Shown here: positions 37,784 to 41,088 of the stretch, in pieces | Layout: every line of letters starts with the position of its first letter | Position numbering within the stretch: position 1 is the stretch's first letter | Origin: a virus | Taxonomy: Duplodnaviria > Heunggongvirae > Uroviricota > Caudoviricetes | IMG/VR virus record: IMGVR_UViG_3300033463_000001 | Span: 1 to 64,000 of that record | DNA: 64,000 bases | Direction: 5' to 3' (one strand) | The notes under the pieces: generated by a model | What the model saw: the letters and a program-made list of their open reading frames with translations, nothing else | Told to the model about the DNA's origin: nothing | Databases searched by the model: none | Program-made: the position numbers and the translations under genes

Positions 37784-37845
37784 AGCTCTATAAATTTCAT
37801 TTTTTTTCTTGTTGCGGAACGAACCGCTATTCGTTTCGCTTTTTC

Positions 37846-37973
37846 GTGGCAGCGTAGCAAGGATTGGTTATGACGCCTACCAATCAGCTGTTACTCGTCT
37901 ATATGCGAATTCCGCAATCGTTGATGTTATCTCAGCGGCGTGCGCCAGTGACGTAGACTTTCACATGCTCCAC
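37846..37973 (-). ncRNA. Candidate 128-nt structured RNA
   Basis: Closing GTGG-AGC/GCT-G-CCAC; GTCTA/TAGAC, TGCG/CGCA and GATTGGT/ACCAATC helices. Confidence 0.45.
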
Positions 37974-37979
37974 TCTGTG

Positions 37980-39185: not shown

Positions 39186-39261
39186 TAGTCCCGTGTGGGC
39201 TTTCACCACAGACCTCCGCCTTATCGGTGCGGCGCTCTATTTTACTCTGAGCTACGAGACT
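39186..39261 (-). tRNA. Atypical tRNA-Ile(GAT)
   Basis: Four stems present; loop CCGATAA; D-loop lacks GG; T-loop TGAAAGC. Confidence 0.7.
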
Positions 39262-40361: not shown

Positions 40362-40633
40362 AAAATATCTATTATGTCAGCGTGCTCAGGATGGTGCTTC
40401 AGGTAAGCCTCAGCAAGCGATTTGTCGATGTAGTATCTTTTAAAGAAGTCCGGTGCTGCGGCTTCCCATTCCTCTTTATGCGATGTGACGTTACCCTCAA
40501 AAGGCTCCGGCTCATGCTTCTTACAATCCTCAATTGCATCAGGGAGAGTTACCTGCCACACAGTTGGATGTAGGCATACAGGGTCGCCATCCCATACATT
40601 AAAGAACTTACACTCTAAGCATCTTGTTTCCAT
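40352..40633 (-). CDS. Hypothetical Cys-containing protein
   Basis: ATG 40633 downstream of tRNA-Trp; CxxC...C...C. Confidence 0.65.
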   Translation of the reverse strand: METRCLECKFFNVWDGDPVCLHPTVWQVTLPDAIEDCKKHEPEPFEGNVTSHKEEWEAAAPDFFKRYYIDKSLAEAYLKHHPEHADIIDILGG

Positions 40634-40650
40634 TGTACGCTGTATTTTTG

Positions 40651-40723
40651 CAGGAGTGGTAGGGCTCGAACCCACGACCAACGGTTTTGGAGACCGCTAC
40701 TCTACCAACTGAGCTACACTCCT
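40651..40723 (-). tRNA. tRNA-Trp(CCA)
   Basis: GCGGT-CTCCAAA-ACCGT. Confidence 0.95.
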
Positions 40724-40727
40724 GTGT

Positions 40728-41015
40728 AATATAAAATAAGGGTGTGCTGTTACGCCAAAGCCCTCCCGTAAGTCCTACCAGAAGTGGGTTCATAACCCCG
40801 CCGTACTGCCAACGTACCATTCTCTTGAGGGTGGACTGATTACCCCATTATGGACGGCAGACCATTGAATTACCAATGTCATGTTGTGGATGTCTCCCTT
40901 ACAGTCAATAACACTCTGGGCTATTAACTCCCAGTTGCCTAAGGCTCATAGGGCACTTTCTGCACACTCCTTAGAAGATGGCTGCTTCCAGGCCAACTTT
41001 CCCTTATTTTATATT
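40728..41015 (-). ncRNA. Structured RNA containing a split copy of the 23S rRNA uL11-binding domain (H43-H44)
   Basis: Perfect 15-bp terminal stem; GTTGGCCTGGAAGCAGCCATCTTCTAAGGAGT ... GCGTAACAGCACAC. Confidence 0.8.
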
Positions 41016-41017
41016 TG

Positions 41018-41088
41018 TTGCCCCACTCCGATTCGAACGGGGATTCCATGAACCAAAATCATGTGTCCTGCCATTGGACGATAGGGCA
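41018..41088 (-). tRNA. tRNA-Gln(TTG)
   Basis: CATGA-TTTTGGT-TCATG; U1-A72. Confidence 0.9.

Follow-up and report, generated by a model that had tools for sequence, protein, structure and literature searches.

A tRNA-flanked phage RNA predicted to rebuild the GTPase-associated center of 23S rRNA around a lineage-specific insert

An ORF-poor stretch of 288 nt on the minus strand of the window analyzed here (64,000 nt, the initial 64 kb of a virus record that is 327 kb long and estimated to be 93% complete) was shown to be a stand-alone phage non-coding RNA and not an rRNA gene. Comparative analysis shows selection on a structure that is predicted to rebuild the uL11-binding domain of 23S rRNA, i.e., the top of helix H42 with H43 and H44, tertiary contacts included. 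A lineage-specific domain leaves H44 between positions 1090 and 1091 via a three-way junction whose UUUR linker is conserved. The element is a member of a large family of phage RNAs that mimic the GTPase-associated center (GAC), and a virus-encoded stand-alone copy of an rRNA functional center is undescribed as far as Rfam 15 and full-text literature searches show. The RNA runs from 41015 to 40728, with the following parts and neighbors (E. coli 23S numbering).

40728..41015, minus strand: whole element, 288 nt, with tRNA-Gln upstream and tRNA-Trp downstream
41017..41088, minus strand: tRNA-Gln(UUG), directly upstream of the element
41001..41015, minus strand: 5′ strand of the closing stem (H42-like), a perfect 15-bp complement of 40742-40728
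41003-41001, minus strand: GGG within the 5′ stem strand, equivalent to 23S 1053-1055
40977..40997, minus strand: H43 equivalent (23S 1059-1079), 19/21 identical to E. coli, with C1065 and G1067
40966..40976, minus strand: equivalent of 23S 1080-1090, UUCUAAGGAGU, in which U1080 pairs with A1058 (40998)
40756..40965, minus strand: insert between 1090 and 1091, 210 nt, a structured domain
40756..40759, minus strand: UUUG linker from the insert to G1091, a family-wide signature
40740..40755, minus strand: equivalent of 23S 1091-1106, comprising the H44 upper stem, the thiostrepton loop, A1101, C1102, A1103, and CCC
40728..40742, minus strand: 3′ strand of the closing stem, complement of 41015-41001
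40650..40723, minus strand: tRNA-Trp(CCA), 4 nt downstream of the element

The outline proposed in an earlier reading of the sequence alone was reproduced: the arms of the inverted repeat (40728-40742/41001-41015) are perfectly complementary over 15 bp, and the element lies between tRNA-Gln and tRNA-Trp with measured gaps of 1 to 2 nt on its 5′ side and 4 nt on its 3′ side. The segment at 40966-40976 holds the C1082-G1086 pair, the A-minor adenines A1084/A1085, A1088, and U1090, which pairs with A1101. The motif occurs once in the 327-kb record.

Alignment was made to the real E. coli K-12 rrlH, with which the 23S sequence quoted in the sequence-only reading agreed. The joined halves (40997-40966 and 40755-40742) align with 23S 1059-1104 without gaps and with 37/46 identities, as had been proposed for two halves surrounding a 210-nt insertion. 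Five paired differences had also been put forward as compensatory. Watson-Crick pairing is indeed kept at all of them (1053-1106, 1054-1105, 1058-1080, 1082-1086, and 1090-1101), but the compensation at 1090-1101 holds relative to E. coli only. In the window, 1058-1080 is A-U, 1082-1086 is C-G, and the triple 1072/1092-1099 is C/C-G.

Compared with the 23S GAC (the top of H42, H43, and H44; E. coli 1051-1108, the 58-nt uL11/thiostrepton fragment), the element is alike in H43 (19/21), in the pairs 1058-1080, 1082-1086, 1087-1102, 1091-1100, and 1092-1099, in the conservation of A1084, A1085, A1088, and A1095, and in the covariation of the 1072/1092/1099 triple. Unlike the 23S GAC, it lies outside any rRNA gene, is encoded among phage tRNA genes, and has a plain variable stem in place of H42; the phage elements also insert a domain of 45 to 445 nt with a UUUR linker at 1090/1091, carry A1101 in place of U/C, and often have G at 1067. 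Identity as a 23S rRNA gene was rejected on the tRNA flanks, on the absence of any match to the LSU rRNA model (RF02541) in the 327-kb genome at an E value of ≤10, and on the insert, whose similarity to E. coli 16S, 23S, and 5S rRNAs is not above that of shuffled sequences. A search of 40600-41150 against Rfam 15 at an E value of ≤10 returned the two flanking tRNAs and three other matches outside the element; at the gathering thresholds, too, tRNAs were the only matches in or next to it. With the LSU model and all other families thus run, as the sequence-only reading had recommended, the element has no match to any Rfam 15 family.

Three scans of IMG/VR define the family. A query of H43 in which three loop positions were left free found at least 117 loci; among the matches listed, two of 117 look like uninterrupted rRNA, and 103 loci with 79 distinct inserts have one architecture in common. 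The 3′ signature alone, with H43 not preselected, added at least 71 further distinct members, and at least about 50 more came from a query of H43 with U1072, so that the family comprises at least about 200 distinct members. The order of parts is a variable closing stem, GGRAN, H43, N-U-Y-U-A-A-R-G-A-G-U, the insert, the linker, GCGUARNAGC, A, CAC, and the stem complement. Insert length ranges from 45 to 445 nt across the family, the linker is UUUG in 65/79 and UUUA in 9/79, and no insert-free phage member occurs among the approximately 200 members listed. The window element carries every family feature (closing stem, H43, ..GAGU, insert, UUUR, GCGUARNAGC, A1101, and CAC), and chance similarity is excluded because of this family evidence. 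Homologues had been expected to keep both halves with covariation, and the complete members examined do so. A same-strand tRNA lies within 500 nt of 90/151 distinct members, abutting upstream in 43 of the 90, downstream in 34, and on both sides in 13, the last being the arrangement of the window element.

Named and cultured phages were found by blastn with a short 5′-half query against GenBank phages; long queries from the element gave tRNA matches only in blastn searches of E. coli genomes and INPHARED. Complete elements were read in two cultured jumbo phages, in both cases in unannotated gaps.

NC_019401, about 289.5-289.8 kb: complete member of Cronobacter phage GAP32 (L470)
AP018399, about 150.2-150.6 kb: complete member of Xanthomonas phage XacN1 (L471)

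Beyond these two, about 20 named GenBank phages have matches to the 5′ half only. They include phages of enterobacterial hosts (Pectobacterium phage CBB, Serratia phage BF, several Erwinia pEa_SNUABM phages, and Yersinia phage fHe-Yen9-04), of Xanthomonas (XbC2 and XaC1), and of Pseudomonas (pf16, Astolliot, Milchi, and UNO-G1W1), as well as Aeromonas phage 4_4572, Paenibacillus phage Pd_22F, and Vibrio phage 2.275.O. With the 5′ half alone matched, CBB of Pectobacterium, pf16 of Pseudomonas putida, and Serratia phage BF probably also carry the element. GenBank annotation at all matched places is either nothing or a hypothetical protein. The XacN1 element directly follows a gene annotated as 2′-5′ RNA ligase, is followed by a terminator-like hairpin of its own, and reads GAAU, not GAGU, at 1087-1090.

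Selection on the fold was assessed in 72 distinct members selected by H43, 71 selected by the 3′ half, and 48 selected by U1072. Position 1058 is paired with 1080 in 72/72 members (U-A in 31, G-C in 21, A-U in 17, and three others), and 1082 with 1086 in 67/72 (U-A in 34 and C-G in 28). The H42-like stem (1051-1055/1104-1108) is paired in 65 to 72 of 72 members, compared to 28 to 65 in shuffled controls, and all four Watson-Crick types occur at most of its positions. Among the matches listed for the 71 members chosen by the 3′ half, full compensatory swaps are found at 1062-1076 and 1064-1074. In the rRNA, a base triple joins C1072 (H43 loop) to the H44 pair C1092-G1099, and this triple reportedly covaries with U1072/U1092-A1099 (Conn, Gutell, and Draper are said to have described this in 1998). 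The same covariation is seen in the phage copies: those with C1072 have C1092-G1099 in 72/72 cases, and those with U1072 have U1092 in 48/48, with A1099 in 42 and G1099 in 6. Because the covarying partners of the triple flank the insert, the two halves must meet as they do in the ribosome. Selection on structure, as opposed to a decaying captured fragment, had been argued from the window alone; the compensatory stems and the covariation of the 1072/1092/1099 triple bear this out across the family. Near-invariant positions are A1084 (71/72), A1085 (72/72), A1088 (72/72), and U1060 (71/71). The corresponding rRNA contacts have been described, namely, the A-minor contacts of A1084/A1085 on 1054-1105/1055-1104 and that of A1088 with U1060, together with the triple G1055=C1104/A1085 and a neighboring triple (PMC1919483).

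Which features set the phage copies apart from cellular rRNA was read from a scan of bacterial genomes with H43 followed by ..UAANGAGU, a GAGU-containing pattern that is uninformative on phage-type copies in bacterial genomes. All 120 loci listed (of at least 120) are uninterrupted 23S rRNA; among the 121 matches listed, 115 continue with GCGUAAnAGC and 6 have a variant loop. Many cellular 23S rRNAs read GAGU at 1087-1090, which is therefore ordinary in bacteria, and U1090 is not phage specific. Position 1101 is A in 72/72 phage copies, whereas in the 115 canonical cellular copies listed it is U in 110 and C in 5; A1101 and an insert were found in none of the at least 120 cellular 23S loci listed. 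The family-specific features are thus A1101, the insert, and the UUUR linker. The reading is GAGU...A1101 in GAP32 and GAAA...U1101 in E. coli 23S rRNA, which we take as a stand-in for the rRNA of the enterobacterial host of GAP32. In view of this difference at 1089-1090 and 1101, the family is not a set of recent host captures.

When viral and metagenome contigs were searched with motifs of the window insert, ten more distinct relatives emerged, including one on a contig of 387 kb, which makes a subtype of 11 distinct sequences. A curated structure of the GAC core and the insert helices pairs 91.5% of cells in the subtype alignment, compared to 78% in column shuffles and at most 49% with slid partners, and 30 of 58 pairs are altered on both sides. 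The insert helices are as follows.

40965-40963/40762-40760, minus strand: 3-bp insert closure, supported by the subtype alignment
40953-40950/40899-40896, minus strand: CCCU/AGGG, supported by the subtype alignment
40934-40930/40920-40916, minus strand: CUGGG/CCCAG hairpin, compensated at 4/5 positions in relatives
40878-40874/40867-40863, minus strand: CAUUG/CAAUG, supported by the subtype alignment
40860-40856/40810-40806, minus strand: CUGCC/GGCAG, invariant and thus carrying no covariation information
40798-40794/40790-40786, minus strand: GGGUU/AACCC, likewise invariant and carrying no covariation information
40783-40779/40768-40764, minus strand: UUCUG/CGGGA with an invariant ten-nt loop, supported by the subtype alignment

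Several unpaired blocks are also invariant across the subtype. Of the insert helices suggested earlier, CUGGG/CCCAG was retained, but GCCCU/AGGGC and GACUG/CAGUC are lost in relatives. An apparent compensatory change of L350 in the GGGUU/AACCC hairpin is really A.C plus G.U and was not counted as support. The minimum free energy (MFE) fold of the window RNA is rod-like (−97.6 kcal/mol, versus −60.9 kcal/mol for the comparative fold), which counts against the reading favored below. It was rejected, as relatives preserve its long-range helices poorly and compensatory changes in them are few. The UUUG linker (40756-40759) is complementary to GAAG of the H43 loop (G1068-G1071, 40985-40988), and this pairing is present in the MFE fold; the complementarity may be a coincidence, or it may reflect a tertiary contact or a switch to another conformer.

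A sarcin-ricin-like hairpin (AGUA-N-GNRA-N-GAA) is absent from the window insert and its subtype. The motif was found in 3/79 inserts, of which L028 and L087 are convincing and L009 was recovered by a looser search only. The inserts of L028, L087, and L009 are 313, 445, and 314 nt long, and the sarcin-ricin-like sequences AGUACGGGAGGAA and AGUACGAAAGGAAC lie in closed stems. Mimicry in some members may thus extend to both halves of the factor-binding site. A 14-mer at 43987-44000 (minus strand), two mismatches from the sarcin-ricin loop, lies inside a 229-amino-acid ORF (43814-44503) and was set aside as coincidence. Many inserts, e.g., those of L080, L002, L018, and L045, have a recurrent module in their last ~50 nt that consists of AGUA, 4 nt, and a stem enclosing A-CC-[CCN-tetraloop-N'GG]-UAAGG. 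This UAA-bulge hairpin stands ~22 nt before the UUUG linker, and its inner 3-bp stem covaries; the window insert has a loose variant only.

The reading favored here, in which we place about even confidence on the basis of the comparisons above, is that a tRNA-released GAC mimic acts as an off-ribosome decoy or sponge for a GAC-directed ligand. Judging from its position, the element would be part of the tRNA array transcript, from which RNase P and tRNA 3′-end processing would free it, with 3′ processing of tRNA-Gln setting its 5′ end and the RNase P cut at the 5′ end of tRNA-Trp setting its 3′ end. A siting suited to such release had been noted at the outset and agrees with the tRNA that abuts the element on each side. 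The free RNA would then bind ligands of the rRNA site, with host uL11 as the first candidate, and the copied uL11-RNA platform would be recognized by translation GTPases, thiopeptides, and GAC-directed toxins. Genes for uL11, uL10, and bL12 are absent from the phage genome, and any protein partner would for this reason be that of the host. Either ribosomes needed by the phage would be shielded from a GAC-directed effector of the host or a competitor, or free uL11 would be drained; the two outcomes rank about equally. Binding of the uL10-bL12 stalk, which had been entertained as a further option, is disfavored, as sequence conservation in the H42-like stem does not extend below 1053/1106.

Conservation is much higher in the GAC core than in the insert. 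A1095 and the base at 1067 are exposed in crystal structures and dispensable for folding, and A1095 is nevertheless kept in 71/72 copies, while 1067 stays a purine. Because these exposed, fold-dispensable bases are kept, the factor- and drug-facing surface probably matters too. A toxin directed at this surface is known: Tre23 ADP-ribosylates H44 at 1095-1098 (PMC8661411). Two features, the G1067 of the subtype and the obligatory insert, are accounted for by neither a decoy nor a uL11 sponge. Position 1067 is G in 10/11 subtype members and A in E. coli 23S rRNA, and A1067 is, to our knowledge, near-universal in bacterial rRNA. With G1067, the factor-contact face of the subtype is therefore not a perfect copy, which counts against a decoy. 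Invariance of the UUUR linker and of the place of insertion suggests a requirement for the insert, which a pure decoy leaves unexplained, and uL11 in assembled ribosomes would be out of reach of a sponge, which also counts against the favored reading.

The occurrence of a GAC copy in large phages of many hosts could, with slightly less than even confidence, represent a counter-measure, i.e., an effector sink or a means of stripping uL11 that silences RelA. Candidate GAC-directed effectors would be a Tre23-like ADP-ribosyltransferase, a nuclease, or a thiopeptide. If true, the family would be to rRNA what phage tRNA arrays are to tRNA, and it would be a sign of an unrecognized class of ribosome-directed anti-phage defenses.

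A pure uL11 sponge is unlikely, although it retains more weight than the other alternatives. Such an RNA would capture new or exchanging host uL11 and leave ribosomes without uL11, with RelA inactive and the stringent response blunted, as RelA activation depends on uL11. Conservation is indeed strongest at positions that build the uL11-binding tertiary fold, and the phage has no uL11 gene of its own. However, A1095 and the H44 loop are conserved as much as the fold-forming positions, and binding of the uL11 C-terminal domain alone does not require them; the inaccessibility of uL11 in assembled ribosomes weighs here as well.

Somewhat less probable still is that the GAC copy is a handle, serving as a folding nucleus or protein-recruiting module, and that the variable insert has the real, lineage-specific activity. 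This would fit the invariance of the insertion site and UUUR linker in a family of ~200 listed members that includes none without an insert, the strongly conserved unpaired blocks and covarying helices of the window insert, and the sarcin-ricin-like hairpins of some long inserts. It is countered by inserts of 45 to 445 nt that share little sequence between subtypes and by a GAC core that hardly varies among phages whose hosts are very different.

There is little probability that the RNA traps or activates RelA or translation GTPases (EF-G, EF-Tu, IF2, and RF3), acting through a free factor-docking copy together with insert modules. The conserved A1095 and purine 1067 would be expected of such a trap, as would the sarcin-ricin-like hairpins in the few long-insert relatives (L028, L087, and L009). 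However, the window element and its subtype have no such hairpin, the sole sarcin-ricin match elsewhere in the tRNA region of the genome is within an ORF, and translation factors bind the isolated GAC weakly.

The possibility, raised in the sequence-only reading, that the insert is a self-splicing group I-like intron in a split gene whose product is a GAC mimic of ~80 nt is very improbable. In its favor, a U stands at the end of the 5′ junction, the insert has a terminal G both here and in 70/79 members, and a length of 210 nt would be close to the minimum for group I introns. Nevertheless, the group I model (RF00028) has no match at an E value of ≤10, family inserts can measure only 45 nt, 9/79 inserts end in A, the subtype alignment shows no conserved internal guide that pairs with the 5′ junction, and the insert closes on itself beside the conserved linker, as in a three-way junction. 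Virtually no weight attaches to a functionless, decaying host 23S fragment picked up by a phage, which the similarity to rRNA might suggest but which is refuted by compensatory and triple covariation in hundreds of copies in unrelated phages and contradicted by the family-specific A1101, insert, and linker and by the departure of GAP32 from E. coli-type rRNA at 1089-1090 and 1101.

Leaders of ribosomal protein operons also mimic rRNA, as in the L10(L12)4-binding rplJL leader and the L1, S8, and S15 sites. The phage element resembles them as an off-ribosome RNA that imitates an rRNA protein-binding site. Such leaders are cis-acting mRNA leaders of cellular operons that copy a minimal binding motif, whereas the element is free-standing, tRNA flanked, and a near-complete domain copy in a genome without uL11, uL10, or bL12. 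For this last reason, and as the neighboring ORFs are orphans (no family was found for them in Pfam or PHROG), identity as an r-protein operon leader was rejected. Phage tRNA arrays and RNA decoys, such as the pseudo-ToxI RNA of phage PhiTE (PMC3475682), share with the favored reading a phage copy of a host RNA that would be cotranscribed with tRNAs and plausibly offered in place of the targeted host molecule; here, the imitated molecule is an rRNA domain. Like the large ornate phage RNAs GOLLD and ROOL (PMC12286853), the element is a structured non-coding RNA without an assigned function near phage tRNA genes. Unlike them, it is much smaller and built around an rRNA-domain copy, and it has no Rfam match to either. 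The sequence-only reading knew of no phage RNA of this type; none was found in Rfam 15 or in full-text literature searches, which returned no phage decoy of an rRNA domain either, and the GenBank loci are unannotated.

The family is widespread, is conserved to the level of a tertiary base triple, and occurs in the culturable phage-host pairs GAP32/Cronobacter and XacN1/Xanthomonas. The culturable carriers and widespread conservation make the benefit of imitating uL11 or the GAC directly testable, and the answer could expose a new route of host takeover (via uL11, RelA, or translation factors) or ribosome-directed defenses and decoys. For structural biology, the family also provides a natural three-way-junction variant of the GAC.

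The remainder of the tRNA array has further ORF-poor parts. More spacers without long ORFs lie between co-oriented tRNAs on the minus strand (41745-41925, 42010-43195, 43295-43640, and 37784-37978). A search of 41700-43750 against Rfam at an E value of ≤1 returned tRNAs only, and rRNA-like pieces elsewhere in the array amount to 12-mers at chance level; one 12-mer common to 16S 942-953 and the spacer 37784-37978 (at 37973-37962) is at shuffle level. Two more tRNA-like genes on the minus strand (39186-39261 and 43221-43291) were reported by Rfam (41.7 and 32.8 bits) but not by ARAGORN. Directly upstream of tRNA-Gln, after a 154-amino-acid ORF (41162-41626), a strong hairpin with a U run is found at 41092-41145 (minus strand). 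It is terminator-like, yet it ends only ~4 nt before tRNA-Gln and was not returned by a simple terminator scan. The unit of tRNA-Gln, the GAC mimic, and tRNA-Trp may be transcribed by read-through or from an unrecognized promoter.
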